The notes beneath the pieces were generated by a model. That model made no database searches, was not told the DNA's origin, and was given only the letters and a program-made list of their open reading frames with translations. 64,000 bases of DNA from a virus (taxonomy: Duplodnaviria; Caudoviricetes), in the IMG/VR virus record IMGVR_UViG_3300018012_000099; one strand, written 5' to 3'. Every line of letters begins with the position of its first letter. Within the stretch, counting starts at the first letter, position 1. Made by a program: the position numbers and the translations under genes. Shown piece by piece: positions 13,367 through 43,179 of this stretch.

Positions 13367-14083
13367 ATGAGAATTTCTGAAATGTTGAACGCAATGGCTG
13401 CTTGGTTGGAAAGCCCGACTAACGAAGCCCTATTACTTGCAGAAGAAGACGAACAATGCCTCAAGGTCGTGGCTGAATCCTGCGTCCTAGCCGCCGCTTT
13501 ATTGAAAAAAGCTGCGGATGAAGTAGATGTATTGGAGCCATCCGAACCATCGAAAATCACTCCAGAATCGGTACAAGAGTTAGCTAATTTGGCTACTGCC
13601 CTCGATTCTTCTGACGATCCACAACTCAAGAAGCAGGCTTCTGTATTGGATGAATTGCTCTTGACTATTGCTGCGCCCCCAGGTGCGCTCGCGGAAAAGA
13701 AAGCTGCCGATGATTATCGCATCGAAGAATTACGCAAGAAATATGAGGAACCTCGTAAGGAACTGCATGCTCTCGATAAGACTTCTGATTCCCTCAAGGC
13801 TATCGACAAAAGCAACATGACCAAGCAATACAAGATTTTGGAAGCTCCCCTTAGTACAAGAACATGTCCAGATCATCCGGGAGCACAAATGTCTAGGGTA
13901 GGAGAGCATGTTTTTCAATGTGAGTTAGATAAAAAAACATACAATTACGAATCCGGATATGAGCTACAAAATGGAGAAAAAGTTCCAGGTGGGGATGTCG
14001 CAAATCAGACACAAGGTTTGAGCACTCCTTTTCATGCCATATTTGACGATCGCCAGGGACGTTTGGGATACAATCGTGCGTAA
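13367..14083 (+). CDS. Hypothetical head-cluster protein with helical-hairpin module and C-terminal Zn-ribbon-like motif
   Basis: 238 aa; LKKAAD, LKKQAS, EKKAADD; CPDH...C motif. Confidence 0.75.
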   Translation: MRISEMLNAMAAWLESPTNEALLLAEEDEQCLKVVAESCVLAAALLKKAADEVDVLEPSEPSKITPESVQELANLATALDSSDDPQLKKQASVLDELLLTIAAPPGALAEKKAADDYRIEELRKKYEEPRKELHALDKTSDSLKAIDKSNMTKQYKILEAPLSTRTCPDHPGAQMSRVGEHVFQCELDKKTYNYESGYELQNGEKVPGGDVANQTQGLSTPFHAIFDDRQGRLGYNRA

Positions 14084-14103
14084 TCGTTGATATATTTGTG
14101 GTT

Positions 14104-14829
14104 ATGAGCCAAAAGCGCATTCAATGGAATACTCAATTATTTGTGGAACGGTCCGCCGTCATCCACAATGGCAAGTATAAATATCCAGAAACATATATTA
14201 ATGCATTGACACCGATTGTAATTGAGTGTCCTATACATGGTCATTTTAAGCAGCAGCCACGACACCATTTAAACGGTCGTGGATGTCCAACATGTTTCCA
14301 TGAAAAATCAAGAAGTACTATCGATGATTTTGTTGAAAAAGCAAATGAAATTCATAATGGAAAATATACCTATCCTTGCAATTACATCAATTCTCGTACG
14401 TTAATAACTATTAGCTGTCCAATACATGGTTTGTTTGAGCAGAAGCCGCCTGTACATTTGGAAGGAAAGGGGTGTCCTTCTTGCGGAGATATTGCGAGAA
14501 GCGAATTTATTATGCCAATTATTTCTAAAATGGAAATAGACTGGCTCGATTCTCTTGGAATACCGCAAGAATATCGTCAGGCATCGCTTAAAATTGGTAG
14601 GAAAATAATCAAGGCGGATGCTTTTGTCCCGCCTACTAATACAGTTTATGAATTTTACGGTGACTATTGGCATGGCAACCCATTAAAATTTTCTTCTCAT
14701 TCTATAAATTCTGTTAAGGATAAGACATTTGGTGAGTTGTACCAGGCTACCCTTGCTCGCGAGCAGCTTATTGTTCAGGCTGGCTATAAAATCATATCTA
14801 TATGGGAATTAGACTGGAATAACCAATGA
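14104..14829 (+). CDS. Homing-endonuclease-like protein (repeated CPIHG zinc units plus Vsr/PD-(D/E)XK-like nuclease)
   Basis: Two YxYP...I.CPIHG.F.Q.P..HL.GxGCPxC units; KADAFVP..NTVYEFYGDYWHG...IWE. Confidence 0.8.
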   Translation: MSQKRIQWNTQLFVERSAVIHNGKYKYPETYINALTPIVIECPIHGHFKQQPRHHLNGRGCPTCFHEKSRSTIDDFVEKANEIHNGKYTYPCNYINSRTLITISCPIHGLFEQKPPVHLEGKGCPSCGDIARSEFIMPIISKMEIDWLDSLGIPQEYRQASLKIGRKIIKADAFVPPTNTVYEFYGDYWHGNPLKFSSHSINSVKDKTFGELYQATLAREQLIVQAGYKIISIWELDWNNQ

Positions 14830-15581
14830 ACAAGAATGCACTTAAAAAAGTTTTAGAGCATCCCGATCGTGACGAAATTATTGCTAAACTAGTATTGGAT
14901 GTTTCTCCTAAGGATATCAATGAATGGTTAGTCAGCAAATATACTAATGTTAGTGAAACAAAGTTCGTTATTGCTGAAAAGTCTATCAAGACTTTTAAAG
15001 ATAACTATCTGGATGTCTATTCTTTGATTCAAGAAGATATGGCCAAGACCAAGCAAGCTGTGGCAACTTCTACCGAAAACCAGCTTGAATTAGCTGTTCG
15101 TAATAATTCCACTTATCGTAGTAAGATGTTAGAATTAGCTGGTAAAGAAATAGATGTGCGCCAGATGGTGGCTCAGCTGTGTGTGGCTATTGAGACTCGT
15201 GTGGCTCAAGTATTTGATGAAATTCAAGAAAATCCTCGAGATATAAATACTAAAGTTGATCGTCTCTTGATTGATTACGCAGAGGTGTTGGGTAACATAC
15301 TAGAAAAGTATTATAAATTCACTGAAAGTCCATCCGAGATTTCTATTCAGAATAACGTGACACTTCAATTTATGGATCAGCATATTTTGGTATTGCAAGA
15401 GGCAGTTCGCGAAGTTTTATCCGAAATGGATCTAGAGAGTTCTATGCTTTTTATCGAACGTATTCAGATTAAAATGGCTAAGCTTAAGGCACCAGAGAAG
15501 GAAGTTATACCCAATACTGAGATCAGATTAGCGGAGGCTAAGCTGCTTAATGAAACTATTAACAAAAAGTTAAACGAGTAA
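14826..15581 (+). CDS. Hypothetical protein, candidate terminase small subunit
   Basis: N-terminal HTH-like HPDRDEIIAKL..SPKDINEWL followed by a long coiled region; the TerS call is only an inference. Confidence 0.5.
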   Translation: MNKNALKKVLEHPDRDEIIAKLVLDVSPKDINEWLVSKYTNVSETKFVIAEKSIKTFKDNYLDVYSLIQEDMAKTKQAVATSTENQLELAVRNNSTYRSKMLELAGKEIDVRQMVAQLCVAIETRVAQVFDEIQENPRDINTKVDRLLIDYAEVLGNILEKYYKFTESPSEISIQNNVTLQFMDQHILVLQEAVREVLSEMDLESSMLFIERIQIKMAKLKAPEKEVIPNTEIRLAEAKLLNETINKKLNE

Positions 15582-15582
15582 T

Positions 15583-17475
15583 ATGTCAAAAGAAAAGAAG
15601 CCTATCAGAGACCCGCATTCCAAGAGCACGTTACGTGATATCGTAATGAAGCCTAGTAGTGGCGTGTTTGATATGGCAGGGATTGAAAACCCAAATGAGT
15701 TAAATGAAAAAATCAAGAGGCTCATCAAGTTTTTTGAAGAGTATGGTATTGATTATAATAAGTTAGACGAAGAAAATGTTACCAAGATTGCTTATCCTAA
15801 CTATGATCAATATATGCACATTCCTGGTCAACATAATTTGAAGAGATGGTTAGAAACAATTAGAAATATTTATGTTAGTGAGAAAAGTGGGCTAGATCGT
15901 GCTAATGCTGTTCGTCAAGCGACCACTGGTTGGAATTTAATGGAAACTTATGATTTCTTGAATTGGATGAAGTTCTATCAAGAAGGAGCTCACTTGAAAT
16001 ACAAAACAGCACAACTTTGGTATGAAAATGGTCAGCCAGGTTACTTTTTACAGATCAAACCAGATCCTACTAAACCAGAAGAGTCTGTAGTAGATCATCA
16101 TGCTATTCGTGATACACAAGAAGACATCGAACGTCAGGAAGATAGGAAGCGTATCATTGAGAAGCAACGTCAAAAGATTATCGGTCGTTTAGATTCTGCT
16201 GAAAAGTTATTACGCTCTCCTGAAGGACAAATGTTTGCTGGTCCTGAATTAGAAAATCTTATGGAAGCTATTTATAGTTTGAAAAAGAGAGTGCAGTTAG
16301 TCAATAAACTCAGCACTTCTACTCGTTTGTATGAAGATATGATTGTGCGCGAAGGTAATGTTTTACGTCGTAAGGGTTTTATCAAAGCTGCCGAAGTACT
16401 ATATTCGGTAGCTCAAGCTAATAATCCACCTCCTCCAGGTATTGGTAAACCGGGACCTATTGAAGCATTACCGCAACCAGTTCCACCAGATGATCCATCT
16501 GGCGCTGGACATCCCGGTCTTCCCGGTACACTTCCATCTTTGGGACCGGGTATGCCACAAGCTCCTAAGAGCCCACCTTCTACTAGCGAGACACAACCAG
16601 TCGACTTGAAGCCAGTTCCAGTACCAGATGGCACTATCGCTCAAGGACCGCCTTCTCCTATGCCTGAAAGTGTGCCCAAAGGAATCGCAGAATTTCTTGA
16701 TCAGACCGAGACAGGCGGCAAGACTACCCCTGAGGAATTGGGCGCAGAGGACAATCTAGAAGTGCAGGACACTTTGGAAGTCGAAGATGATCAATTAATG
16801 GTAACAGAAGCTCAAATGGCACCACCAGGTCCAGTAGCAGAGGATGTTCCAATGACCACGGCTCCCCGTCGTCTAAAGCCGTCTGTTTCACCGCCAGTCG
16901 CGGAGAAACTACTTGAAGTGACTGAAGATACTCCTCCAGCCAATGAAGCCGGGGTGGAACAAGCTGCCCCCGCAGCTAAGGATTTCGATCGTATTATCGA
17001 TTCTGCTCTAGCCAATGTGACTGTCAATGATGTGGTAGCTAAACTGGAAGATATTGCCAAAATTTTCAAGACTAGAGAAATTCCTCGTCAATTAGCCATG
17101 GTAGATATGATGTTAGATAGTTTAAATTTGGCCTCTATGTTTCCTACTCTTTCCGAAGCCATCAATAAATCTCTCGAATCTAATAACTATGTCTCTACTC
17201 GTTTGGATGATATTATTGCTAGACTACGTGGAGCCATGGTTAGTAAAGAAGTGGATCTCAAGGGAGGTAGCAATGCTCCTCGCGCTGGCAGTGTAGCCAA
17301 AAATTTACAAGATCAAGCCGATAAAGATGAAGCTCGTAAGAAGATGAGAAAAGACCAAGAGACCGCTGAACTAGAAGGTGGCGCTAAACCATCTCCTCAA
17401 GTAGAAATTGGCGAAGACCTAGGTGCTCAACCTCCAGCCGCTCCGGCTCCACCACCTCCACGCCCAGTAGGCTAA
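15583..17475 (+). CDS. Large hypothetical head-cluster protein with Pro-rich and acidic linkers
   Basis: 630 aa; TKIAY, YKTAQ, SVAQ then a Pro-rich tract; helical-hairpin module at ~16336-16416. Confidence 0.8.
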   Translation: MSKEKKPIRDPHSKSTLRDIVMKPSSGVFDMAGIENPNELNEKIKRLIKFFEEYGIDYNKLDEENVTKIAYPNYDQYMHIPGQHNLKRWLETIRNIYVSEKSGLDRANAVRQATTGWNLMETYDFLNWMKFYQEGAHLKYKTAQLWYENGQPGYFLQIKPDPTKPEESVVDHHAIRDTQEDIERQEDRKRIIEKQRQKIIGRLDSAEKLLRSPEGQMFAGPELENLMEAIYSLKKRVQLVNKLSTSTRLYEDMIVREGNVLRRKGFIKAAEVLYSVAQANNPPPPGIGKPGPIEALPQPVPPDDPSGAGHPGLPGTLPSLGPGMPQAPKSPPSTSETQPVDLKPVPVPDGTIAQGPPSPMPESVPKGIAEFLDQTETGGKTTPEELGAEDNLEVQDTLEVEDDQLMVTEAQMAPPGPVAEDVPMTTAPRRLKPSVSPPVAEKLLEVTEDTPPANEAGVEQAAPAAKDFDRIIDSALANVTVNDVVAKLEDIAKIFKTREIPRQLAMVDMMLDSLNLASMFPTLSEAINKSLESNNYVSTRLDDIIARLRGAMVSKEVDLKGGSNAPRAGSVAKNLQDQADKDEARKKMRKDQETAELEGGAKPSPQVEIGEDLGAQPPAAPAPPPPRPVG

Positions 17476-17489
17476 ATCAAAGCAAATGA

Positions 17490-19208: not shown

Positions 19209-19225
19209 AACCAACGATTATTATG

Positions 19226-19240
19226 GCATACAAATGCATA
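19226..19240 (+). promoter_or_regulatory. Candidate late promoter GCATA-N5-GCATA
   Basis: Instance of the ATW-N6-YAT intergenic motif; second half continues as CATATAAT. Confidence 0.5.
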
Positions 19241-19274
19241 TAATCATATCCAAAAACAGTCTAGAGGTATCTAC

Positions 19275-20225: not shown

Positions 20226-20231
20226 GCGATC

Positions 20232-20900: not shown

Positions 20901-20908
20901 TTAAATAA

Positions 20909-22786
20909 ATGACAACATCTGAGAAAGATATTTTTCTAAAATTGAAAAGACAGCTGCTTATGCTTGATCCGGTCTCTTTTTGCCAGACCTATCTCAATTT
21001 AGATGGAAAGCCTTTTACTCTAAGTGGTAATGGATACAAGCCTTTCTGTGACATTTATCGATATATTGGTATCAAGGCTTTAGAACGTAACTCTAAACCC
21101 GTTATTATGGTTAAGGGTCGTCAGGTTGGCGCCACCACTATGGCTAGTGCCTTAGAAATGTATTTCATGGGCTCTGGTATGTTTGGTAACGGCGAAAGAC
21201 CACCCATTCGCGTTATTCACACTTTTCCACAATTGGAACTGGCAGCGGCGTATTCTAAGACCAAGCTCAACCAAATGATCATTACCTCTCTCGTCCCGGA
21301 GGGCGTGGAACAAAAGAGCGGCTCCAAACCGAAGTCCTACATGCAACTCTTGTTGGACCAAAGCGCTTCAGCCAGCGAGTCCTTACATTTTAAGCAGTTC
21401 GCGGGTGGTAATCACTTATGGGTAGAATCTACTGGCGTTGATGCAGACCGTATCATGGGTCGTACCGCTGATGTTATCTTTTTTGATGAAGTACAGAAGA
21501 CCACTGATTTGGCATTAGGTAATGCTCTCAAGATTTTAACTACTGCTAAGTATGGTGAGCCATCTAAAGGGGTGAGAATTTATTTTGGTACGCCTCGTCG
21601 TAAAGGTTCTGATTTCCACAAGATGTGGCAGAACTCTTCTCAACAATATTATTACTTAGGTTGCGAAAACTGCGAAAAACACTTCCCACTCTACACTCCT
21701 GGCTCTAATAATTGGGAAAAAATCTGGATTCACGGCTACACTGTCAAATGTCCACTCTGTGGACATGAACAAAACAAATTAGAAGCTGCCGAGCGCGGCA
21801 AGTGGGTTGCCTTTAAAGATCCTAATGATGATGATTGTAACATGATTGGTTTCCATATCAATCAACTTTACATGCCGATGTTTACTCGTGAAGCTATTGA
21901 GAATGAAAAGCCGGGTAAGCACCCCATTAATACCGAACGTGTTTTTATGAATGAAGTTTTGGGAGAATTCTTTCAAGGAGATTCTAGTCCCATTACTCCT
22001 GACGAAGTGCGTCTTTTTTGTGCCGATCATGAAAGAAAGTTTTCTCCTAGTATCGTTCCAAGTAAGGGTTTAATGCAGCAGATTGCCGTGTTGGGTATCG
22101 ATTATGGTGCCCGTTCTGATTTGGAACAATTAGCTCAACCAGATAAGATTACCAGTCGCGGTCAATCCTATAGTACTGCAGTGGTGCTACTGTCTAAAGG
22201 TCCCGGTTTACTATCTATTGAATTTGCGATGAAATTCAAAAGAAACGATCCTGCTCATAAGAAAGGCATCATAGACCAGTTGATTAGACAATACAATATT
22301 CAACTAGCAGTAGGAGATATTGGTTACTCTAATGACTTTTCTCAAGACCTACAAAATGTCTATGGAGATAAGTATTTGGTTTCTCGTGCTCATCCGTCAG
22401 TCAATGAACATGTTAAGTTTAGACATGATACTTTTCCAAAAGAAATTCTTTTCGAAAGAGACTATTATATTGCTCAGCTCTATGAACAAATGAAAAAAGG
22501 AATGATTAGATTTCCTTATGGTGATTATGAAAGAATTGCTTGGTTGATAGAACATTGTTGTAGTATGGAGATTAAACCTTCTATTTCTAGAACTGGTGGC
22601 GATCCTAGTGTCCATTATGTCAAAGGTGGTACACCAAATGATGGTTTCATGGCTTTACTTAACGCTTATATTGCTTATAAGTTCTTGGTAACCAGAGGGT
22701 TTACTCACAATAACCCTTTACTACAGAATGAAAGAAACATTAATAAACCAATGGTTTTGAGTGGATATGTGTCCAGAAAATTCTAA
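20909..22786 (+). CDS. terL: Terminase large subunit (lambda gpA-like architecture with zinc insert)
   Basis: Walker A-like VKGRQVGATT, Walker B RTADVIFFDEVQ, CENC...CPLC insert, nuclease VLGIDYG, C-terminal PNDGFMAL. Confidence 0.92.
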   Translation: MTTSEKDIFLKLKRQLLMLDPVSFCQTYLNLDGKPFTLSGNGYKPFCDIYRYIGIKALERNSKPVIMVKGRQVGATTMASALEMYFMGSGMFGNGERPPIRVIHTFPQLELAAAYSKTKLNQMIITSLVPEGVEQKSGSKPKSYMQLLLDQSASASESLHFKQFAGGNHLWVESTGVDADRIMGRTADVIFFDEVQKTTDLALGNALKILTTAKYGEPSKGVRIYFGTPRRKGSDFHKMWQNSSQQYYYLGCENCEKHFPLYTPGSNNWEKIWIHGYTVKCPLCGHEQNKLEAAERGKWVAFKDPNDDDCNMIGFHINQLYMPMFTREAIENEKPGKHPINTERVFMNEVLGEFFQGDSSPITPDEVRLFCADHERKFSPSIVPSKGLMQQIAVLGIDYGARSDLEQLAQPDKITSRGQSYSTAVVLLSKGPGLLSIEFAMKFKRNDPAHKKGIIDQLIRQYNIQLAVGDIGYSNDFSQDLQNVYGDKYLVSRAHPSVNEHVKFRHDTFPKEILFERDYYIAQLYEQMKKGMIRFPYGDYERIAWLIEHCCSMEIKPSISRTGGDPSVHYVKGGTPNDGFMALLNAYIAYKFLVTRGFTHNNPLLQNERNINKPMVLSGYVSRKF

Positions 22787-22860
22787 AAGTCTGAAATATT
22801 AGCCCTGACTGATATATCATATATTGAGTATAGTAGAGGGTGTAGTGAAAATGAGGATTC

Positions 22861-24756
22861 ATGGCTAGTAATAAACCCCCTAAACAATGGCAGGGACCAT
22901 CAAAATCAGACCAATATATGGATAAGCGTTCAACTGTTCCACAAGTTAGCGCTATTATGGCCCAAGGTGTTTCCAAAGAAAGAAGAGCGATTCTTTCTGA
23001 TGAAGTTGATCAGGGTGCATTTCGTGATGGTTCTGGACCTACCTACAGTCAGAGAGTAGCAGAAAATCTTGAAACTGCTAACGCCCGTGTCGTGGCATCT
23101 GTTGGTGGATTCAAAAAGAACGCTCAAGTAGTTAGTAGTGTGGGCGGTATGTTCCGTGGTATTCACGGAGATTCTGTCAAACAAACTCCTGAAGTATATT
23201 CTCCTCTGTGGCTCAATTCCAACCTTAATCTACCCCGTGATAGGGCTACTATCAATGCTTGGTGTCGTAGCTTTTATGCTTTGAATCCTTTCGTACATAA
23301 TGCTATCAATCTTCACAGTACTTACCCAATTAGTAAGCTAAGCATTAAGTGTCCTAATAAAGATATTGAGAAGTTCTTCAACGATATGATTGAAGAAATC
23401 GATTTGATGAACATATGTGTACAAATCGCTCAGGAGTACTGGTTACTCGGTGAAGCCTTTGTATATTCTGAACTAGATGAAAGCAAAGGTAAGTGGAGTC
23501 GTTTGCTGATTCAGAACCCAGACTTTATGGTGGTTAAGCGTACCGTAGTGGCTAATGAACCTATTATCCAATTGCGTCCAGATCCTAATCTACAAAAGAT
23601 TATCTTCTCTAACCGTCCTAGTGATATTGAACAGCGCAAACAATTAAACCAACATATCATTGATTCGGTGCGTCGTGGTGAAAATATTCCTCTAGACAAC
23701 TTTCATGTTTCTCATTTGGCTCGTCGTATCAGTCCTTATGAAATCAGAGGTACTGGACTACCAGTCTGTATTTTTCGTCAATTGATGTTATTTGATAAGT
23801 TACGCGAATCCAAATATGCTCAAGCTGATAATATGATCAATCCACTCACCATCGTTAAGATTGGTTCGGCTGATTATAAACCTACTTTCGCCGACTTAGA
23901 AGCTTGGAGAAGTACTTTCGAAGAAGCTCAATATGATAAGGATTTCAAGATTTTTACTCATGAAGGCGTAGATGTTACTAGAGTAGGTTATGGTCAAGGT
24001 ATCTACGATATTTCTGGTGATATTACTCAGTTAGTTAAAGAAATCTACGTGGGACTTCAGGTTCCACCGGTGTTGATGGATGGTGGTGCCGATACTACTT
24101 ACGCCAATGGTGGTGTAGCTTTAGATGTTTTGCGTCAGCGTTACATGCAGTTTCGTAATATGATGTCCCAGTGGTTGAAACGCAAAATCTTTGCTCCTAT
24201 CTCCAAAATTCAAGGATTCTACGATTATTCCGGTGGAGAGAAGCAGCTCATCGTTCCAGAGATTGACTGGAATCATATGTCCTTGTTCGATGCCGGAGAT
24301 TACATTAATAGCATCGTCACTTTAACTCAAGGCACTGATGAAGCTAAGAGAGTTTCTTTGCATACCCTATATCGTTCGATCGGTTTGGAATTTGAAGATG
24401 AAACTCGTAAAATTCGCAAGGAAGCTATCCAAAACGCCATTGCCAAAAAGGAAAAGGCAGCTTTGGAGGCTATGGACCTCAACGCTCTTCGTGCTCTGGA
24501 TGAGGAAGATGAAATTCCGGAACCAGAAAAGAAGCCAGGACAAGAAGAACAGCCAGTTCCGGGCGAAACTCCAGGTGGCGCACCACCTCCAGGTGGTATG
24601 CCAGATTTGGGATTGCCGAGTGGTCCGCCTCCAGGTCCGCTTCCAGGTGGAGGAGCCGCAGCGCTTCCTGCGGCACCTCCAGGTGGCGAGGCGCCCCCGG
24701 GCGGTGGGACACCCCCAGCCGCTCCGCCAGTAGGCGGACCACCGCCCGGTCCATAA
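22861..24756 (+). CDS. Portal protein with Pro/Gly-rich C-terminal tail
   Basis: Directly after terL; WCRSFYALNPFVHNAINLH, EYWLLGEAFVY, FHVSHLAR..SPYEIRGTGL; FKKNAQ near the N-terminus. Confidence 0.85.
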   Translation: MASNKPPKQWQGPSKSDQYMDKRSTVPQVSAIMAQGVSKERRAILSDEVDQGAFRDGSGPTYSQRVAENLETANARVVASVGGFKKNAQVVSSVGGMFRGIHGDSVKQTPEVYSPLWLNSNLNLPRDRATINAWCRSFYALNPFVHNAINLHSTYPISKLSIKCPNKDIEKFFNDMIEEIDLMNICVQIAQEYWLLGEAFVYSELDESKGKWSRLLIQNPDFMVVKRTVVANEPIIQLRPDPNLQKIIFSNRPSDIEQRKQLNQHIIDSVRRGENIPLDNFHVSHLARRISPYEIRGTGLPVCIFRQLMLFDKLRESKYAQADNMINPLTIVKIGSADYKPTFADLEAWRSTFEEAQYDKDFKIFTHEGVDVTRVGYGQGIYDISGDITQLVKEIYVGLQVPPVLMDGGADTTYANGGVALDVLRQRYMQFRNMMSQWLKRKIFAPISKIQGFYDYSGGEKQLIVPEIDWNHMSLFDAGDYINSIVTLTQGTDEAKRVSLHTLYRSIGLEFEDETRKIRKEAIQNAIAKKEKAALEAMDLNALRALDEEDEIPEPEKKPGQEEQPVPGETPGGAPPPGGMPDLGLPSGPPPGPLPGGGAAALPAAPPGGEAPPGGGTPPAAPPVGGPPPGP

Positions 24757-24791
24757 TCCACATAAAATCAAGGGTTAGTGTATGTACTTAT

Positions 24792-24806
24792 GGATAATGC
24801 AGCATT
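24792..24806 (+). promoter_or_regulatory. Candidate late promoter GGATAATGCAGCATT
   Basis: ATW-N6-YAT motif, 35 nt upstream of ATG 24842. Confidence 0.45.
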
Positions 24807-24841
24807 CTTATAGTTATTAGCCTATAAGTAGAGGGTTTTCT

Positions 24842-26152: not shown

Positions 26153-26153
26153 G

Positions 26154-29876: not shown

Positions 29877-29902
29877 AGCACAGTAGGTAACTAAAATACT
29901 GG

Positions 29903-30143: not shown

Positions 30144-30146
30144 TAC

Positions 30147-33100: not shown

Positions 33101-33815
33101 TCTTGGTAAGGAAGATGATGGAGAAGTTCAAGATGCTTCCAAGATTCAGTTCAGCGATATGCTAGATCAAGCTGACGGTCTTGCTGATGGTCAGACCCAC
33201 TTAGATGTCAAGCCGTCCGATAGCCTCGGATTGGTGGAAACTCTACCAGAAGAAAACAAGGCTATGTTGGAAGTCGCTAAGGCTCCACCAAAGGTTCGTA
33301 AGGAAGCCGAAGCTATTCAAAAGCTTGTTTCCGAAGGTTCCTTGGATCCAGCCGATCTAGATGCTTTAGTAGCAGAAGGTTTGGACAAGGATGCAGTGGC
33401 ATACTGGAAGAAGTATTACAGCCAAACTGATGGCGGTTCTGAATTCGCCAGTGAATTGGTTAAGGAGCATGTGAAGGCTCAACTCGAAGAAGAGTTCAAC
33501 AAGTTCCGTGTTAAGATTGCCAGAGCTTACGAGCTAGCCTATGATATGGCTGAACGTGGTATGTGCAACGGCGACAAGGGCTCTATCTCCCTACAAGTTG
33601 AGGAAATCATGAAGTTTGATGATCCAAGCTTCGAATCTCTTAAGAGAGTGGTTGCCAGAAACCCAGTAGTCGGTATGAAGAAGCAAGCTGGACGCCTTCC
33701 ACTAGTTGGCGTACGTGAGAACGACGAGCTATCCTCCACTGCCAGTGTTGAAGAACAAGGTACGGAATATGATAGACTATCCTCTATGTTCGGTAACAAA
33801 AAGGGCTCATTCTAA
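30147..33815 (+). CDS. Prohead maturation protease fused to a scaffold/core polyprotein
   Basis: N-terminal domain NSNGDIFP..EL...KPLCIDH...VRGFIVD...VSMG...ELSIV..GAD (HK97/assemblin-like His/Ser) with a Cys/His insert; long acidic/helical C-terminal region; lies between portal and capsid genes. Confidence 0.85.
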   Translation: MPFNKYGETVEIRIENTESCIPAVSPEILENFQKFATNLKKIAPKAEDFLYFSAVMMHAAEAAALNDDGTPRMTAKGEAAQVSWDKSNNTWKWVSNDPNIKPYKNSNGDIFPEEELVKAHKKWVHKPLCIDHKSSSVDHVRGFIVDTYYDRNLKRVIALCALDKAGYPQLARNVSTGISNCVSMGTAVGRAICTDCSRVARTEQDFCSHMKNKSCYGEINIDLNPIELSIVMNGADQRATIKHVLAAANTLNTYVENKQKELAKLADLSFSASLIVNDPQGIEGGGSSTFQVNGNNIDKFKADLDEAFQRLTEIANAAKKSEKDTNLSAFNQSSGSISMDESAETDSGLALQTPQTVRFASADEAGISELREVTAAIEAKLNQMKHSLDKLAQTSIKTQEETMTGSNELNKKGYYQGAGGVNEPTPGQAKYPKDPLNEQLRENEDKQMVGQPPFPGVGPVDGMHPSPGSADPSDELQRKKMLARAEAEERALRRQAIVNLAKEALQNKEAYFQGGGGVNEPTPNKPKYPKDKLNEELREYEDKQMVGQPPFPGVGPVDGLHPSPSSADPKDELKRKQMLARANALTGRFTKAANEDGTLNQGNSAWEIFLGEKLLLTASVNDLSAGRPELFYDQIATKPFGLQLIEKIRTKGAASVANLVKKGQVPPPPAGGDVGAPPAGDMGAPAGGPPEDTGKSGDPKQTAMELAEKVRDLSSDLVEAVRALTGEQAEMGAGDEGSSAPPTAGGAPAMADDSKMSSASFSATTLNTLRRELNSALTHAMKEAVAELNDHKQELDMIVGLFDKGAVVDSNKDTVSALADDAFNETKAAVADGFKLMNAFVKYARGTEAIVKRAEIESELQALGADEGDDMNDAKKSKDSSKDSHSADAGDLMGLINDTNADLDAVHSLMSDDNDHVGEEPHDEAMEHLEGLAALDDENGAVEVKTPEQAAQVTKANPAASVVVQASLDTREGRSALRAKLAADALGKEDDGEVQDASKIQFSDMLDQADGLADGQTHLDVKPSDSLGLVETLPEENKAMLEVAKAPPKVRKEAEAIQKLVSEGSLDPADLDALVAEGLDKDAVAYWKKYYSQTDGGSEFASELVKEHVKAQLEEEFNKFRVKIARAYELAYDMAERGMCNGDKGSISLQVEEIMKFDDPSFESLKRVVARNPVVGMKKQAGRLPLVGVRENDELSSTASVEEQGTEYDRLSSMFGNKKGSF
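31377..31892 (+). repeat. 75-codon in-frame direct repeat (31377-31601 and 31668-31892)
   Basis: KKGYYQGAGGVNEPTP...DKQMVGQPPFPGVGPVDGMHPSP...MLARA versus KEAYFQGGGGVNEPTP...DKQMVGQPPFPGVGPVDGLHPSP...MLARA. Confidence 0.95.
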
Positions 33816-33844
33816 AACTAGCTAACTAGGAAATAGGACTTACA

Positions 33845-34576
33845 ATGAAAAACAACAGTGTATCAGATTTCGTAGCTGCATCCATGGATGCAGCTCTGAA
33901 GAGCCAAGAATACAAGACCCTCTTTGGTACTCAGTATAAGTATGCTGACGACCAAAATGATGCCAAGAAAGAAACCATGTGTGCCAAACACGGTGAAATG
34001 GATTCTTGCATGGCTGATGACAATGACGCCAAGAAGAAGGACTCCTCTAAAGATTCTTCCAGTGCCTCGGATCAAAATGATGCTCGTAAGAGCAAGGATT
34101 CCTCATCTTCCTCCTCTTCTTCTAGCAAGGATTCTTCCTCTGCTGATGATCAGGCAGCTAAAGCTAAGAAGGATTCTAAGGATTCCAGTAGCGCAGATGA
34201 TCAAGATGCCAAGAAAAAGGATTCTAAGGACTCTAGCTCTGCTGATGATTCCGAGGAAAAGGTTTCCAGCGCTTTCGATGTGGCTATTGACAGCTTGCTA
34301 ACTGCTTCTGCTGCTTTAGATTCTGTTGGTCTCGGACGTGGTTCCGCCCTCAGCTTGAAGCTAGCTTCCTTGGTTGTTGAAGCCAAGAAGAAGGACAAGG
34401 ACTCTAAGAAGTCTTCTAAGGACTCCAAGAAGAGTGATTCTAACTCCGCTAAGGACAAGAAGCACAGCAAGGATTCCAAGGATTCTAAGAAGAGCGATTC
34501 CCATTCCGCTAAGGATAAGAAGAGCGATTCTAAGAAGTCTGACTCTAAGGACTCTAAGAAGTCTTCTAAGAAGTAA
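33845..34576 (+). CDS. Low-complexity Lys/Asp/Ser-rich protein
   Basis: Repeated ADDQ/N-DAKKKDS-KDSSS units and SKKSDSKD tail; YKYADD junction; helical-hairpin module. Confidence 0.8.
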   Translation: MKNNSVSDFVAASMDAALKSQEYKTLFGTQYKYADDQNDAKKETMCAKHGEMDSCMADDNDAKKKDSSKDSSSASDQNDARKSKDSSSSSSSSSKDSSSADDQAAKAKKDSKDSSSADDQDAKKKDSKDSSSADDSEEKVSSAFDVAIDSLLTASAALDSVGLGRGSALSLKLASLVVEAKKKDKDSKKSSKDSKKSDSNSAKDKKHSKDSKDSKKSDSHSAKDKKSDSKKSDSKDSKKSSKK

Positions 34577-34584
34577 GGGATCCC

Positions 34585-34800
34585 ATGTTCAAGAACAGCT
34601 TTGAGAACGAAATATTTCGTTCGATGGAGAAAACTCTAGTCAAAAATCAGACTGAGAACAACACGCACGGACTGAATAAGTTAGCTAAAGCTGTAGATTA
34701 TTTGAACGACGCTGCTGTTATCTTTGAGCGTGCAGGTATGACCCAAGAAGCCGATCTCATCACTGAGGTACTAGCTGGTTTAGCCAAGGATCTCAAATGA
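34585..34800 (+). CDS. Small hypothetical protein (N-terminal motif plus helical-hairpin module)
   Basis: 71 aa; MFKNSFENEIFRSM and LNDAAVIFERAGMTQEADLI. Confidence 0.72.
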   Translation: MFKNSFENEIFRSMEKTLVKNQTENNTHGLNKLAKAVDYLNDAAVIFERAGMTQEADLITEVLAGLAKDLK

Positions 34801-35639
34801 TTAAAAAGAGTGTCTTTGAAAATGAATTGATTGCAGGAATGCAGCAGGAACTGCGCAAACAAGCCTCAGGTGAAACGCCCGATCTTGTGAAGGCGGGAGA
34901 ATGTTTGCATGCTGCCTTGGAGATTTTAGAAGACGCAGGCTTATCACGCCATGCCGATAAGGTATTGGGCATTCTGCACAAGATTGCTGCTGATTCAACT
35001 AAGCGCATTCACAAAGTACCTACCCTTCAAGAATTAATGAGACATGGTTTAACCACCGAAGATATTCAATCTTTCGGGCGTGGTGACACTGGTGCCAAGA
35101 TGAAGATGAACTTGGTGCTTCGTAAAATGGACTTAGGAGAGCACGAAATTGCTCAGTTTATTGGTAAGCACAATGTGGTACCAGAACACGAACTAAAAAC
35201 CTATCAAAAATTCATGGGATGGATGCAAGATCCATTTAAAGTTGACGAAGGACCAGTTCAGCCGGGACAAACTGTGGAACTACAAAGTTTACCACAGTTA
35301 CCAGAAAATGAGAGTAATAAGCCAGTGGGTGAAGAAATTACTTTCAAGAGTTTGGCGAGTAAACCAGGACGTCCTGACAGGATTTCTGATGTTCATACTA
35401 AGAAATTAACGCCCGCTAAAATGGTGGAAAATCTTAAGCATCACGGCACTGAATTTAATATGCCAGATTTAGGTTGGGCTGACTTTGATCCAGAATTAGC
35501 TGATGCTCTGGATGCTCACAGTGCTGATGAAATGAATATTGAAGATATTTTTGATGCCGATATTGCTGATGACACTTTGGAAGTTTCCGACCTAGTTCCA
35601 CTAGAAGACTTCGAAGATGAAGTATCTTCTCCGAAGTAA
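34797..35639 (+). CDS. Hypothetical head-cluster protein
   Basis: 280 aa; N-terminus paralogous to the 34585 protein; LRKQAS, LHKIAAD; acidic C-terminus. Confidence 0.78.
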   Translation: MIKKSVFENELIAGMQQELRKQASGETPDLVKAGECLHAALEILEDAGLSRHADKVLGILHKIAADSTKRIHKVPTLQELMRHGLTTEDIQSFGRGDTGAKMKMNLVLRKMDLGEHEIAQFIGKHNVVPEHELKTYQKFMGWMQDPFKVDEGPVQPGQTVELQSLPQLPENESNKPVGEEITFKSLASKPGRPDRISDVHTKKLTPAKMVENLKHHGTEFNMPDLGWADFDPELADALDAHSADEMNIEDIFDADIADDTLEVSDLVPLEDFEDEVSSPK

Positions 35640-35655
35640 TTCAAAGTGTGGATGA

Positions 35656-36495
35656 TTAAGTTAGTTCACAAAATTCTTTGTATTTATCGTATTTGCGTGG
35701 CAAATAAATAGTCGTGTCTTGATACAACCAGTCCAATACTTTTTTGACTTGCAGATTACCACCGACAGAAAGAACGGTAGTGATTTGATTAGTTTTGGGT
35801 TTGGACAGCGATATAGAACAGTGAATGTCTAATTTGTTTTCTAGTAAATCTTTGACTACCAAGCAGAATTGTCCTGTGGAAGTAATTTGCCAGCCCCAGT
35901 CTACCTGTCCTGTTTTCGTGGGTTTTCGAGCATATAAGCTCCCATCACCATCGAAGTAGCCCCTGATAAAATGTTGCTGCAATTTTGGGTCAACCAGCCA
36001 CTCTGGCCATGTTAGGATCAAACTCTTGACTGGAATACATCCCAATTTGGTGAGTTGTTGTGTTAGTAATTTACTGTTAATTCGTAGACGATAATATATT
36101 TCTGATACACTTGAATCGCTTACTATTTCAACAGAAGATAGTGGAGAAATCAAATCTCGAAATCTTTCCAATATCACTTTATCTTTCTCTTGTAACTTGA
36201 TGCTTATCTCGTAACTGTGGGCTTTCTTCACATAATTATTACCATCAGCATACATAAATCCCAATGTGTATGCTTTTTCTTCCGTGTCAATTATGTCAAA
36301 GAAATTTTCGTTGGGTATATATTTTCTTGTATATGACTGTGTAATTCTTCTTTGTATGCCGCATCTTTTCAAAGTGTTCATAATGAAAGTTTGAGAACAG
36401 CCGCATTTTTCAGCTACCTGATAAGTGTCCAGACCAGACGTATAAAGAGCAACTATAGTGGAGTCGAGTTCAGGAGATGATTTTATTTTCTGCAT
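35656..36495 (-). CDS. LAGLIDADG homing endonuclease (free-standing)
   Basis: EEKAYTLGFMYADG and HFIRGYFDGDGS double motif; antisense to the operon. Confidence 0.9.
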   Translation of the reverse strand: MQKIKSSPELDSTIVALYTSGLDTYQVAEKCGCSQTFIMNTLKRCGIQRRITQSYTRKYIPNENFFDIIDTEEKAYTLGFMYADGNNYVKKAHSYEISIKLQEKDKVILERFRDLISPLSSVEIVSDSSVSEIYYRLRINSKLLTQQLTKLGCIPVKSLILTWPEWLVDPKLQQHFIRGYFDGDGSLYARKPTKTGQVDWGWQITSTGQFCLVVKDLLENKLDIHCSISLSKPKTNQITTVLSVGGNLQVKKVLDWLYQDTTIYLPRKYDKYKEFCELT

Positions 36496-36602
36496 ATTTA
36501 AGTATATAACCAGCCCGGTTGAAGTTTTTGTGAGGAATGAATGAAAATAACTAGAATGCCGAACATTGCGGCTCCAAAAAACTCAATGATTTCAGGTAGT
36601 TA

Positions 36603-37292
36603 ATGTTGCGCTTGGTCCAAGTCGGAAATACTTTACCTGTCTCTTTTATTTGTGATCCAAGCGCGGAGTTTCAACCAGGTATGGTGGCCGAGCTTACTGT
36701 TATTGGTAACCAAGTGATGGCTACTGTCAGTAACGGCACTGCTCCGCTTGGTATTATTGACGATATCAAAACCAAAGCTTTTACCAATGTCAGCTGGAAC
36801 GAAGTAATTATCGTCCCGGCTATTGGTGTTCCGGGACCTAATAATACTATCGTGACGCCAGTAGATATTAAAGCGGAACTGAGAAGACCAAATATTGTTC
36901 CTACCAGTTTCAGTTCGACTGTTAATGTTCTATTAAATCCAATTAATGGAGTTATTACCTTCGTGGCTGGCACTCAGCTTAATTTCGATGCTGCTGGTAC
37001 AGGTACTCCTAACGCTATTCGTTCAGTAGTTAATTATACCTATCAAGTAGCCAATATTCCTGGCGATGATAGCACCCAGGGTTCTGGTCGTATGACCGTT
37101 TGGTTTGAAAGAATGTTTTTTCAAACCGATCAATATGAATCTAACCAACAATATCCTGTCCGTGCTAATTTATATTGTAGTGAAGTTGGGCAATTAACTA
37201 CTCGCCGTCCTAGCCCTATTCATCCAGCCATAGGGATGGTAACAGCTCCACCCACTCCAATGAACCCTATGATCGAGATTTTATTTTTTTAA
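36603..37292 (+). CDS. Capsid decoration/cement-like protein
   Basis: MLRLVQVG..PVSF..DP..EFQPG.VAEL; beta-rich; N-terminus loosely parallels the 43293 protein; function inferred. Confidence 0.55.
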   Translation: MLRLVQVGNTLPVSFICDPSAEFQPGMVAELTVIGNQVMATVSNGTAPLGIIDDIKTKAFTNVSWNEVIIVPAIGVPGPNNTIVTPVDIKAELRRPNIVPTSFSSTVNVLLNPINGVITFVAGTQLNFDAAGTGTPNAIRSVVNYTYQVANIPGDDSTQGSGRMTVWFERMFFQTDQYESNQQYPVRANLYCSEVGQLTTRRPSPIHPAIGMVTAPPTPMNPMIEILFF

Positions 37293-37360
37293 TTCGGAAT
37301 ACGAGTTGAAAGCATGGTTTGCGTCTACTGCATTATGGTAGATTAAATTCTTTATCTGAC

Positions 37361-37375
37361 TAATATCTCAGCATA
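37361..37375 (+). promoter_or_regulatory. Candidate late promoter TAATATCTCAGCATA
   Basis: ATW-N6-YAT motif 30 nt upstream of ATG 37406. Confidence 0.5.
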
Positions 37376-37405
37376 ATATAGACAAATCAACCGTTGGGGC
37401 TATTT

Positions 37406-38605
37406 ATGACTTTTAAACATGTGAAATTTGAGGATTCTCCTGTAATGCGCTCTTTAGAGAGGGTGGCGCAGCAAAAGGGATTGGTTAAGGCAGATTCCCT
37501 TCAAAAAACAGCTGTTGCTAAGAAGATTGTTTCCAACTTAGTACCTACTGAAAGTTTACTTGACAACGTTCTTAGGTTATGTGTTGGTTTGCGAGAACGC
37601 GGATTCGATAAACAAGCTGAAGATTTGGAAACTCACCTGTCCAACTACAAGAAAGCTCAAACGTTATATGAAACTTCTCCTGAAAAGGGAGAAGATGTAA
37701 TTGAGTTTGCGCATCCAGAAGGTAGTCATAAACTCGAGGGAGTAGATGCTAAGGATGATGGTGCCGTCTTTGAAGATATTCTAGATCAAATGGCTAAGTC
37801 CATTGAAATGGTCAACAAGAAACCAACTGGCAAATTATCTGAAGCTCAAAAAGCTATTCAAGCTGTAAAGGTAACTCTAGGTGCCGCCCCTTTAGACGTT
37901 AATTCTCTATACGCCCAGGCACAAGATGCGTTAGAGAAGTTTCGTAGTACTATGGGTAGTATTGCTACCATGATGGGCGAAAATGCCAGCACTAATTCTG
38001 AGTATTTGGATGGCATCAAAAATGTGTTAGATAAGAAACAAGTCTACCAAATGACCTCCGGTCATTTATATGGTCGCACTCCGGTAGCCTCTATTCTGCT
38101 TAATGTCTATGACAATTTTAAAAATACTATGGAACCTAGCTATCTTAATCCATTTGGTTGGGGCGGACCTTCCGCTTGGAGCCCCAAACAAGAACAGGCT
38201 TGGCAAGAAGTACAGAAGTATTTTCCCGTGTTGAAAAAGTATGCCGATCGATTTCACACTGTGGTTTCTCAAATTAATGATATCGAGAGCGGCGTCGCCA
38301 CCAAAGCCGATCAAGAAGCGGTCTCACAATTCGATCCTGAAGGTCCCGCCAATATCCTAATTAGTAAACTACAGGGTTTGAAAGAGACCATCAATACAGA
38401 TATTTCTAAAATTCAACAAAAGAAACTACCCAACGCTAATGATTTGGTTGGCTGGTTAAATAAAGCTAGAGATAATTTCGTAACCAAATATATGCAAGAA
38501 TTAACTGCTTCGGATAAGGGAGAGCAAGTAACCGCTGATTATGGCGCTAAATACAATAATCTTAAATCCAAGATTGATGCCTTTGAACAAAGGTGGTTAG
38601 CATGA
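37406..38605 (+). CDS. Hypothetical internal/ejection-like protein
   Basis: LQKTAV, helical hairpin then YKKAQ; LYE..P...IEFAHPE shared with the 41890 protein. Confidence 0.75.
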   Translation: MTFKHVKFEDSPVMRSLERVAQQKGLVKADSLQKTAVAKKIVSNLVPTESLLDNVLRLCVGLRERGFDKQAEDLETHLSNYKKAQTLYETSPEKGEDVIEFAHPEGSHKLEGVDAKDDGAVFEDILDQMAKSIEMVNKKPTGKLSEAQKAIQAVKVTLGAAPLDVNSLYAQAQDALEKFRSTMGSIATMMGENASTNSEYLDGIKNVLDKKQVYQMTSGHLYGRTPVASILLNVYDNFKNTMEPSYLNPFGWGGPSAWSPKQEQAWQEVQKYFPVLKKYADRFHTVVSQINDIESGVATKADQEAVSQFDPEGPANILISKLQGLKETINTDISKIQQKKLPNANDLVGWLNKARDNFVTKYMQELTASDKGEQVTADYGAKYNNLKSKIDAFEQRWLA

Positions 38606-40832: not shown

Positions 40833-41842
40833 TGACTAAAGGTAATGCCAGTTTTTATCTAGATACACAGCTCGTTGAAACAGTTTTAGGAGATGGTAAA
40901 TTCACCAAAACTGCGCAGGCTGGAATTTTGTCTGGATTGGGGGGCATGGTTAAAGAATATTTTGGTGCTCACTTCGATCCCAACGATAAGGAGGGTAGCG
41001 TCATTAATATGTTAGCTCCCGCCGCCATTTCCTCTCTCTTCCGTGCTTTTGGTTTTGGTAAGCTGGGGTTGCTATTTGGTGTAGCTGCTAGTGCTTTACA
41101 TTTGGATGTAGCGAGTATGATTCGTAGTATCTACGAGCGTCTCAAAGTATCTATTGGAAAGGGTCAGGTTACACCATCCGAAGTAGATGGCGCAGTTAAT
41201 GAAGCTATCCAAGAGCATACCACTTCCCCACAAGAAAATGACCAGTCCCCCGCTTTCGATAAGAGAAATTTCGATAAAGAAATAAGAGATGCTCGCATAG
41301 TGCGTTTAGCTTTAGAGCAATATGAAACACAATTGTTTCAATTAACCAAAGAAGGCGCTCCCGCCCGTGGTTGGTTTTCTAGTGCCAAGCGTTCTGCTAC
41401 TGGTAACTTGATTGGTCGTATTATCGGATGGGTTTTTAAACTTATTCTAATGTCGGCAGGTTTTATGGTAGCTGGAGACATCGCCAACAAACTATTAGGT
41501 CGTCCTAATGCTCTAGATCATACTTATCAGGCAGCCCCTTCCAGCGAAAATAGCATCACTTCACATCCCGCATCTTCTAATGTGTGGATAGAACACGTGA
41601 CCAATGATCCAAATTCCATCGAGAATATGTTGCTTGGTTTTACCAGGGATATTTATCCGAATTTAGTGGGTAAAGAAGATGCTATTAAAAAATCTCCTAC
41701 TTTTCAAGCCATTAAAGATCAAATTGTTTGGTATAACCATACGGCTGCGGGAGAGCCGGAGGTCTATATTCCAGCAATATATACAGATAAGAAATCTCTA
41801 GTGGATCGTTACATCAATGAGGTGACCAAAAATGCATCTTGA
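40832..41842 (+). CDS. Hypothetical protein with hydrophobic Gly/Ala-rich segments (ejection/pilot-like)
   Basis: FTKTAQ then AGILSGLGG...; FGFGKLGLLFGVAASAL; IIGWVFKLILMSAGFMVAG. Confidence 0.75.
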   Translation: MTKGNASFYLDTQLVETVLGDGKFTKTAQAGILSGLGGMVKEYFGAHFDPNDKEGSVINMLAPAAISSLFRAFGFGKLGLLFGVAASALHLDVASMIRSIYERLKVSIGKGQVTPSEVDGAVNEAIQEHTTSPQENDQSPAFDKRNFDKEIRDARIVRLALEQYETQLFQLTKEGAPARGWFSSAKRSATGNLIGRIIGWVFKLILMSAGFMVAGDIANKLLGRPNALDHTYQAAPSSENSITSHPASSNVWIEHVTNDPNSIENMLLGFTRDIYPNLVGKEDAIKKSPTFQAIKDQIVWYNHTAAGEPEVYIPAIYTDKKSLVDRYINEVTKNAS

Positions 41843-41848
41843 TTACCT

Positions 41849-41863
41849 GCATATCCAAGCATA
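41849..41863 (+). promoter_or_regulatory. Candidate late promoter GCATA-N5-GCATA
   Basis: ATW-N6-YAT motif; supports ATG 41890 as the true start of the next gene. Confidence 0.5.
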
Positions 41864-41889
41864 TTCATATAATTTACCATGGTGGGATA

Positions 41890-43179
41890 ATGAGACGTTC
41901 AGATATTTTTGAGACTTTTGTCAAGATAGCCGAAGAAAAGGGCTTGGTTTCCAAAGGTTCACCAGAATCTGTGAAGGAAACTTTAGAAAAGACTCATCGT
42001 GCCGATTCTTTAAGTATTGAGGATATTGCTCATTTGTATAACACCAAACCTGGTGCTCCCAAGGAGATGGAATATAAGAAAAATATCGTGGAAATTGCTC
42101 ATCCTGAGCCTCAAGTGCTGTTTAATTCCTATGATAAGCTCAATGCTTTAGTGGAAAATATTCAAGAGCGTCAGAACATTCTTCTACATATCGTCAACAA
42201 AAATTCTCCCGATGGACAGTTGACCAATCGTAAATATGCCAAACGCGACTTCATTCTTTCTTTGGTGAGAGTGGGCAACGATATGGATAATCGTGGTCAG
42301 TCTGATCTAGTGACTTTAGCTGATGCTTGTTTGTATCAAGCTACAGCTAAATCTCTAAAGAAAAACGCTCAATTACAGCTAATTATTCCACTTATCGCTG
42401 CCGCGATGGGAGGATTATATGCTAAACAGCATCTTCGTTTTCATAGCGATGGTTTTGAAAGAGATTATCAGAAGGCGGTGGCTGAATTAGACGATTTGCT
42501 CAATTCTAATAGTAATTTTGGGGTAGGATACGAATATAAACCAGAATTTATTACTCGAGTCAATGATATCAAGAATAAGTTAAACGATTTAAACACTTCC
42601 GTTCAATCCGTTTTACCGGAGTTAGATAAATTGGAAGCGCCACATACCGGATCTGAATTGGTCACCATTGCTAAACAACCAGACACCCATGAAGCCCTAC
42701 ATGCTCTGCAAGAGTTTAAGAAAGTAGTAGGAGAAGTATATCCATATTTACGTCAAGTAGTGGCTGACTTTAGCAATGAAGGCTATAAACAACGCCAAAT
42801 TCAAGATAAGGGATGGTTAACTGGCGTGGTAGATAGCACCGAGGTATTGCACGGTGGCAAAGGGTTAATTGCGGATGATTTTGATGATGTAGCTCATGCC
42901 TTACAAACTATCTTCTATGATGTGGCAAATATTCAGAAATCTTTATCTGGTGCTGATAATGCTGCTGCTCTAGCTCAACAACAATTACAATCCGCCCAAG
43001 CTAGTATGCCGGGTGAAGAAGCTTCTCAAGAACCAGAATCTGCCTCAGTACCTCTTCCAACTGCCCACGAAATGGGTGGTAGAACTTCCACAGTTCCTGC
43101 TAATCCGGTGGAACAAGATCAGGCTTCCCAGTTGGAAAAAGAACTCTCCGACTTCTCTTGGGAAGATTTAAAGGGCTAA
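41890..43179 (+). CDS. Hypothetical internal/ejection-like protein, paralogous to the 37406 protein
   Basis: FVKIAEEKGLV, IVEIAHPEP, helical hairpin, LKKNAQ followed by hydrophobic LQLIIPLIAAAMGGLY. Confidence 0.78.
   Translation: MRRSDIFETFVKIAEEKGLVSKGSPESVKETLEKTHRADSLSIEDIAHLYNTKPGAPKEMEYKKNIVEIAHPEPQVLFNSYDKLNALVENIQERQNILLHIVNKNSPDGQLTNRKYAKRDFILSLVRVGNDMDNRGQSDLVTLADACLYQATAKSLKKNAQLQLIIPLIAAAMGGLYAKQHLRFHSDGFERDYQKAVAELDDLLNSNSNFGVGYEYKPEFITRVNDIKNKLNDLNTSVQSVLPELDKLEAPHTGSELVTIAKQPDTHEALHALQEFKKVVGEVYPYLRQVVADFSNEGYKQRQIQDKGWLTGVVDSTEVLHGGKGLIADDFDDVAHALQTIFYDVANIQKSLSGADNAAALAQQQLQSAQASMPGEEASQEPESASVPLPTAHEMGGRTSTVPANPVEQDQASQLEKELSDFSWEDLKG

Follow-up and report, generated by a model that had tools for sequence, protein, structure and literature searches.

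Seven helical hairpins in the head-gene block of a phage G-related megaphage appear to be a mixed set, some bordered by candidate prohead-protease sites

The window analyzed here, the whole 64,000 nucleotide (nt) stretch of virus record IMGVR_UViG_3300018012_000099 (Duplodnaviria; Caudoviricetes), belongs to an uncultured relative of Bacillus phage G, a megaphage whose head-gene block it carries. Matches to PHROG profiles mark the genes of the large terminase (20909-22786), of the portal (22861-24756) and of an internal protein bearing a transglycosylase (26154-27281). They also place a head maturation protease domain, which matches phage G gp19 by tblastn as well, at the start of a 1222 amino acid (aa) protease-scaffold fusion (30147-33815, + strand). 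The major capsid protein (44269-45282, + strand) is 54% identical to phage G gp27. An initial annotation had described a helical hairpin common to seven otherwise unrelated proteins of this window, followed by K-x-A sites, and read it as a single cleavable address label for the capsid. As far as sequence comparison can tell, the seven segments are a mixed set and not one module, and the seven-protein label is not a real family.

We took 240 related loci around the protease-scaffold, terminase and capsid genes and built ortholog alignments for 30 protein families from the first 160 of them. The protease-scaffold protein has hundreds of metagenomic relatives, on contigs up to ~500 kb, and each of the seven segment-bearing long open reading frames (ORFs) is conserved in 30-60 related phage contigs. 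All seven peptide segments were found on the + strand, within a few bases of where they had been placed: 13577-13660 and 16342-16416 in the proteins that we call, from the first position of their longest ORFs, 13367 and 15583; 34295-34357, 34699-34773 and 34902-34991 in 33845, 34585 and 34797 (hereafter group A); 37568-37660 in 37394; and 42262-42333 in 41839. Every hairpin is conserved inside its own family according to the ortholog alignments. The seven proteins gave no Pfam match at or above gathering score and no PHROG match at an E value (E) ≤0.01, and searches of these proteins and their neighbours revealed no PHROG or Pfam family for the hairpin proteins. Similarly, megablast with 8.5 kb of the window found no match among GenBank phages, a locus search using the 37394 protein alone gave no match, and ESM Atlas queries with 37394, 13367 and 15583 returned no usable matches.

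We then compared five independent groups (group A, 37394, 41839, 15583 and 13367), with reversed sequences as decoys for HMMER and reversed families for hhalign. BLASTP between the groups found nothing at E <1, and no hairpin profile run by HMMER against 8869 ORFs gave a cross-family match above reversed decoys. The hhalign scores between groups (15-23) overlapped the decoy maxima (14.6-21.3). A hidden Markov model (HMM) made from all seven segments, the check proposed by the initial annotation, retrieved only its own seven families and seven unassigned ORFs (best score 25.8), which are probably divergent group A members; no other assigned family scored above decoys. In leave-one-group-out HMMs, the omitted hairpin was not recovered for 37394, 15583, 13367 and 41839. 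When group A was omitted, 34585 was matched at the right place with a score of 12.0, the top unrelated ORF scoring 11.6 and the top decoy 8.6. Decoy-controlled similarity between the independent protein families, as expected of one homologous hairpin family, was not observed. An all-against-all profile comparison of 22 families gave clear matches for 34585 with 34797 and for 37394 with 41839, and a weaker one between the C-terminal part of 30147 and 37394. The proteins are not otherwise unrelated: 33845, 34585 and 34797 are paralogs of one another, as are 37394 and 41839.

The sequence pattern written for the module fared similarly. Said to occur in all seven proteins, it matched exactly in one only (37394). 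A shortened core of the pattern had six matches in the window, compared to 0.49 in shuffles, and was not enriched in 61 kaa (thousand amino acids) of E. coli proteins (ratio 1.3). This enrichment is circular because four of the six matches defined the pattern, and two of these four are paralogs; of the two extra matches, one is within the protease fold (aa 162) and the other in the fold of the capsid protein (aa 79). All seven segments have hydrophobic residues at heptad spacing, small residues where the helices touch, and a Gly that ends a helix and precedes a hydrophobic residue. Through helix capping, such features are typical of any antiparallel helical hairpin, and the written pattern is generic, resembling any helix-Gly-helix hairpin. 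The position of the hairpin is not constant either, with starts ranging over residues 28-247 of the proteins (in 33845, 140 residues in).

AlphaFold2 models of 37394 and 34797, made with family alignments, predicted helices 51-64 and 68-89 (counted from Met5) in 37394, with a predicted local distance difference test (pLDDT) >90, and helices 4-25, 30-46 and 50-69 in 34797, with a block-mean pLDDT of 89-94 over residues 31-60. Foldseek searches of the PDB with both models and of BFVD with the 34797 model gave nothing at E ≤0.001, and a VIA wide search returned generic helical hairpins and bundles only (Z ≤6.8). The 34797 hairpin superposes on the capsid-bound scaffold helix-turn-helix of phage Pa193 (9b40_G) with Z 4.8 and a root-mean-square deviation of 1.6 Å over 41 residues, and many unrelated hairpins equal or beat this match in Z. 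Since the fold searches give generic hairpins only, the shared shape of the modelled hairpins is therefore uninformative. Prediction of a complex between 34797 aa 1-70 and 30147 aa 760-1222 scored 0.00 with both chains poorly folded, and is evidence neither way. A tetratricopeptide-like repeat was discarded, each protein having a single hairpin and no Pfam match. The BFVD search also surfaced two small uncultured-phage proteins (43% and 29% identity), which are probably group A relatives.

In the case of group A, relatedness was clear. To judge from their sequences, 33845, 34585 and 34797 are three tandem paralogs directly after the protease-scaffold gene, with a common ~65-aa three-helix N-terminal domain (N-domain) composed of an N-terminal helix and the hairpin. 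The 34585 and 34797 families align by hhalign at 99% (E 3e-18, 65 columns) and by BLASTP at E 3e-6, and the 33845 hairpin sub-profile joins them at E 4e-5. When the low-complexity insert of 33845 is removed, this protein aligns end-to-end with 34585 and 34797 (E 1e-5; reversed decoys score 12-13). Both the end-to-end profile similarity of the ~65-aa N-domain and the tandem position after the protease-scaffold gene were therefore seen for these three proteins. Three copies are present in 50 loci, two in 15 and one in 4, always adjoining the protease-scaffold gene, and in five complete relatives of ~450 kb the 34585/34797-type domain occurs only in two adjacent genes after it. The proposed single label in seven unrelated proteins is not supported: the only demonstrable module is the group A N-domain, in two or three adjacent genes, and the seven have no signal in common other than a generic helix-Gly-helix.

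The three copies differ in what follows the N-domain. The first (33845..34576, + strand, 243 aa, orthologs in 64 loci) has the N-terminal helix, then an insert of ~115 aa, the hairpin (aa 141-182, nt 34265-34390), a conserved KLA (aa 172-174, nt 34358-34366) and a Lys-rich tail; the hairpin is its best-conserved part. Its insert is Ser/Asp/Lys-rich and of low complexity, its tail is made of KDSKKS-like repeats, and the protein could be a DNA-contacting internal head protein. The second (34585..34800, + strand, 71 aa, in 63 loci) is the three-helix N-domain alone. The third (34797..35639, + strand, 280 aa) carries the N-domain at aa 1-69 (nt 34797-35003), a KIA conserved in orthologs (aa 62-64, nt 34980-34988), a confidently predicted helical domain (aa 77-144, nt 35025-35228) and a variable acidic tail. 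This second domain is small, all-helical and modelled at pLDDT ~97, and the whole model had no fold match in PDB or BFVD. One conserved N-domain is thus found with nothing attached (34585), with a Lys/Ser/Asp-rich tail (33845), or with a small helical domain and an acidic tail (34797), and a conserved K-x-A stands at the junction. We also considered phage G gp20, which occupies the same place after the protease, as a group A homolog and rejected it, since no similarity was found.

The proteins 37394 and 41839 are paralogs (hhalign 95.8%, E 8e-9). The 37394 gene probably starts at Met5 (37406..38605, + strand) and not at the start of the longest ORF (37394-37405), according to ortholog alignments and an Atlas record. 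In ORF numbering, an N-terminal helix ending in LERVA is followed by the hairpin (aa 55-88, nt 37556-37657), which ends in a conserved YKKA, then by an A-H-P module (aa 88-150, nt 37655-37843); the remainder, towards the C-terminus, is helical and poorly conserved. None of the 45 orthologs lacks the hairpin, whose end is marked by a conserved [KR]-x-[AS]. Similarly, 41839 probably starts at Met18 (41890..43179, + strand) and not at the longest-ORF start (41839-41889), as judged from ortholog alignments. It carries the A-H-P module at ORF aa 62-130 (nt 42022-42228) and, as the segment initially listed, a helix-DN-helix element with the motif LVRxxNDLDN...LRxLADxC (ORF aa 139-170, nt 42253-42348), in which neither the turn Gly nor the following KNA is conserved. 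The 37394 hairpin falls in a gap of the 41839 alignment and the 41839 segment pairs with another stretch of 37394, the two not having the same position relative to the conserved elements of these paralogs. From these alignments, the 37394 hairpin is a clade-wide conserved insert between the N-terminal helix and the part shared with 41839.

The two remaining segments lie outside the recognizable head block, in proteins devoid of an N-terminal K-x-A motif. In the 630-aa protein 15583 (15583-17475), a helix-Gly-helix (aa 247-285, 16321..16437, + strand) is followed by a Pro-rich linker and conserved in 45 orthologs; its best cross-family score was 19.6 (to 37394) against a decoy maximum of 21.3. 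In the 238-aa protein 13367 (13367-14083), the helical segment (aa 66-104, 13562..13678, + strand) belongs to a protein conserved in 39 orthologs uniformly along its whole length, with a C-terminal Cys/His pattern that resembles a zinc ribbon. In the window copy of 13367 the turn has no Gly and the spacing departs from the pattern. At the level of sequence profiles, the 41839, 15583 and 13367 segments appear to be family-specific helix-turn-helix stretches with no demonstrable link to the others.

The unbiased search pointed instead to the A-H-P module. This ~58-aa module has A-H-P and VET/VEN motifs and follows a conserved K-x-A site in each protein. In 30147, which carries the protease domain at about aa 105-260 and ten conserved [KR]-x-A sites, an A-H-P-like module lies at aa 993-1051 (nt 33123-33299) and aligns with 37394 aa 88-150 with an hhalign score of ~41 (E 1e-5 to 1e-6; reversed decoys <19). 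The same stretch of 37394 aligns with 41839 aa 64-130 at E 1e-7. The direct link between 41839 and 30147 is marginal: 30147 against 41839 scores 23.4, and the reverse search matches a different part of 30147. From these comparisons the A-H-P module, and not the hairpin, appears to be the element common to scaffold and internal-protein candidates, and may be a scaffold-derived assembly module. A hairpin near the C-terminus of the scaffold (30147 aa 1118-1166, nt 33498-33644) was tried as a match to the seven segments and rejected, having no specific similarity to them (15.1 to 34585, within noise). Its best profile match is 12530 aa 214-248 (nt 13169-13273), which is marginal (25.4 compared to a decoy maximum of 22.7). 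Protease and scaffold, fused here in 1222 aa, are encoded by separate genes in phage G gp19-gp21 (locus L161, 16840-19728), gp19 being the protease and gp21 aligning by hhalign with the C-terminal third of 30147 (E 3e-4).

The K-x-A observation holds better than the hairpin module. That a K-x-A site follows the hairpin is true in part: a conserved [KR]-x-A follows in 33845, 34797 and 37394, the site is not conserved in 41839 and is lacking after the 34585 hairpin, and the [KR]-x-A of 13367 and 15583 is located inside the hairpin, not after it. In 34797 (LRKQA and HKIA) and 37394 (LQKTA and YKKA), conserved sites border the hairpin. Independently of the hairpins, 11 of 19 head-block proteins have [LIVFM]-x-[KR]-x-A among their first ~30 residues. 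The motif is rarer at this place in the other proteins of the window (7 of 55, p 2e-4) and in E. coli proteins (13 of 187, p 2e-7), both p-values being optimistic as the motif was defined after seeing the sequences. Examples within 22861-45282 are LVKYA in the capsid protein, LVKIA in 27723, LRKVA in 28463, IKKVA in 38593 and FTKTA in 40832. These sites are conserved in orthologs. The capsid LVKYA (aa 22-26, nt 44332-44346) lies inside a 43-aa N-terminal extension, and its [KR]-Y-A is invariant in the extension of 37 relatives. The extension itself (44269-44397) is conserved in these 37 relatives, whose capsid proteins have an overall identity of 90-98%. The protease N-terminus KIA-PK(A/E)(E/D)DF is common to 30147 and phage G gp19, and several phage G head-region proteins begin with MKRLI, then S/K, K, T/A and A; gp13 of phage G starts with MKRLISKTA and gp38 with MKRLIKKA, and N-terminal K-x-A motifs are also seen in gp20 (RLKKTA) and gp19 (VVKIA). 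A literature search gave no cleavage data for phage G or this clade, and PMC12484599 has no phage G cleavage sites. As in the multiply cleaved propeptides of giant phages (phiKZ/SPN3US type), a short candidate protease motif recurs in the window, is overrepresented near head-protein N-termini and is kept in orthologs, here with a motif defined afterwards. By analogy, N-terminal [LIVFM]-x-[KR]-x-A is a candidate prohead-protease code with Ala before the cut.

The same data can be read without any cleavage. The hairpins would then be ordinary parts of mature, uncut proteins, K-x-A would be a binding or folding feature of an amphipathic N-terminal helix, and there would be no propeptide. Conservation of the hairpins equally suits a permanent structural role; in 34585, which consists of the domain alone, its removal would leave nothing; and [KR]-x-A is common in Lys/Ala-rich helices, as illustrated by the non-head proteins with the motif near their N-terminus. 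However, the motif also stands in the capsid extension, which the annotated phage G capsid protein lacks, and in 30147 each duplicated cassette opens with it and further copies mark other borders between segments of the polyprotein. Its strong enrichment at head-protein N-termini likewise argues against such an explanation, and motifs of this kind usually mark the substrates of prohead proteases, both in T4 and in phages of the phiKZ/SPN3US group (PMC10052503). We consider this uncut reading rather unlikely.

Hence we favour, with moderate confidence, a reading in which the seven segments are a mixed set and those of group A and 37394 are parts of core or internal proteins trimmed by the prohead protease. 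The anatomy of these proteins and their conservation are seen directly in the alignments. Conservation in 37394, 41839, 34797 and 33845 is much higher in the N-terminal part than towards the C-terminus: N-terminal values are 0.5-0.8, against 0.15-0.3 for the C-terminal part of 37394 and 0.21-0.47, with one bin at 0.69, for that of 34797. This suits contact with a conserved assembly machinery. A simple model would thus involve group A and 37394 as prohead core or internal proteins, held in the assembling core by their conserved N-terminal parts, after which the prohead protease would cut at the [LIVFM]-x-[KR]-x-A sites that flank the hairpin. Cleavage, binding partner and location in the virion are all presumed here by analogy, and such trimming would have its counterpart in other giant phages, whose long N-terminal propeptides are cut more than once. 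In SPN3US, propeptides are 20-254 aa long and cut at several sites (PMC10052503). A cleavable assembly role for group A and the 37394 insert is plausible by this analogy.

Several observations weigh against this reading. Hairpin sub-profiles often pick each other, top or near-top among 29 families and at the hairpin positions (for example 34797 to 37394 with 21.7, 37394 to 15583 with 20.5 and 13367 to 41839 with 23.1), and some of these scores exceed decoy maxima. Compared to E. coli proteins, the window has the core pattern ~6x more often. The hairpins could conceivably be related at great distance, or be convergent. Furthermore, phage G, the nearest isolate, has no detectable group A homolog; the [LIVFM]-x-[KR]-x-A motif was fixed after the fact; and both K-x-A cleavage and a head location are putative for this clade.

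Some of these points would suit the interpretation given initially: the hairpin as one address label, either too diverged for sequence methods or convergent, which would dock cargo on the scaffold or the capsid interior and then be cut off at K-x-A. It would resemble the helix-turn-helix by which P22-type scaffolding proteins hold the coat protein. The weak reciprocal matches between hairpins do fall at the correct positions, although such matches are expected from segments hand-picked for resemblance. Both 34797 and 37394 have the order N-terminal helix, K-x-A, hairpin, K-x-A and rest of the protein, the hairpins are among the best-conserved parts of fast-evolving proteins, and the 34797 hairpin superposes on the Pa193 scaffold, yet no better than many unrelated hairpins do. 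However, the label has no decoy-controlled sequence support. Its positions extend from aa 28 to aa 285 and its order relative to other modules differs between 37394 and 41839, the turn Gly is unconserved in 41839 and absent from the window 13367, two of the seven proteins (13367 and 15583) lie outside the recognizable head block, and the group A module is limited to 2-3 genes per genome. One label for all seven therefore seems doubtful. What stands of the idea is the group A N-domain, with its three tails and K-x-A junction, and the 37394 insert bounded by K-x-A sites, together with the better conservation of these N-terminal parts and the K-x-A enrichment at the N-termini of head-block proteins, the capsid protein included. 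Accordingly, the initial observation is partly confirmed and its interpretation partly supported.

A bolder extension of the preferred reading, a mixed set with trimmed group A and 37394 proteins, would be that prohead proteases of phage G-lineage megaphages cut directly after [LIVFM]-x-[KR]-x-A, a code not described before, and that the group A three-helix domain and the 37394 hairpin are excisable docking cassettes, with sites at both borders, which load variable cargo into the prohead core. We regard this as speculative and rather unlikely. Such cassettes would act like the helix-turn-helix of a scaffold, and very large capsids could be loaded with foreign proteins by reusing them. If the two elements do dock and are then cut out, they would offer a handle on the uptake of internal proteins by megaphage capsids (~450-500 kb genomes) and a candidate tag for cargo loading. 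In practice the analysis serves mainly as a correction: the seven proteins should no longer be treated as a family with one module, and the better-supported features are the short N-terminal L-V-K-x-A helix and the A-H-P module of the scaffold tail, 37394 and 41839.

The head block is otherwise broken up by free-standing endonuclease genes at 35656-36495 (- strand), 45397-46236 (+ strand) and 14098-14829 (+ strand). The first two are paralogs of each other (BLASTP E 6e-38). In PHROG searches, 35656 hit an endonuclease family and 14098 HNH endonucleases. The three fit mobile homing endonucleases, and only some relatives carry them. A Cys-dependent phosphatase gene (28463-29248; Pfam Y_phosphatase3 and Y_phosphatase2, above cutoffs) also lies inside the block, and its product, with LRKVA at the N-terminus, may be a packaged enzyme.

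In phiKZ, 201phi2-1 and SPN3US, the N-terminal regions of head and internal proteins run to tens or hundreds of residues and contain several protease motifs, and a targeting or assembly role has been proposed, not proven, for these propeptides (PMC10052503). As in these phages, the window encodes paralogous families of candidate internal proteins. In contrast, Ala stands before the putative cut in [LIVFM]-x-[KR]-x-A, compared to A/S/G-x-E in the phiKZ group, and the window phage belongs to the phage G lineage, its proteins having no sequence relationship with theirs (no PHROG or Pfam matches).

The helix-turn-helix of P22-type scaffolding proteins has been used experimentally to load cargo into P22 particles. 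This coat-binding domain is a helical hairpin of ~40 residues, and AlphaFold2 confidently predicts hairpins in 37394 and 34797, but dozens of unrelated hairpins match as well as the scaffold segment does. The segments have no sequence similarity to the P22-type domain and are found in non-scaffold proteins, in N-terminal or internal position, whereas the P22-type domain has no protease sites at its borders and is the C-terminal end of the scaffold itself. In T4, a short N-terminal peptide ending at a prohead-protease site directs the internal proteins IPI-III into the core (Mullaney and Black 1996, as cited in PMC10052503), and the small core proteins gp67 and gp68 are encoded beside the protease and scaffold genes. 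Similarly, the small candidate core proteins of group A are encoded beside the protease-scaffold gene. The T4 targeting sequence has ~10 residues and lies at the extreme N-terminus, whereas the hairpins have 35-40 residues and are internal. A better analogue of it in the window, than the hairpin, is the short N-terminal helix ending in L-V-K-x-A.

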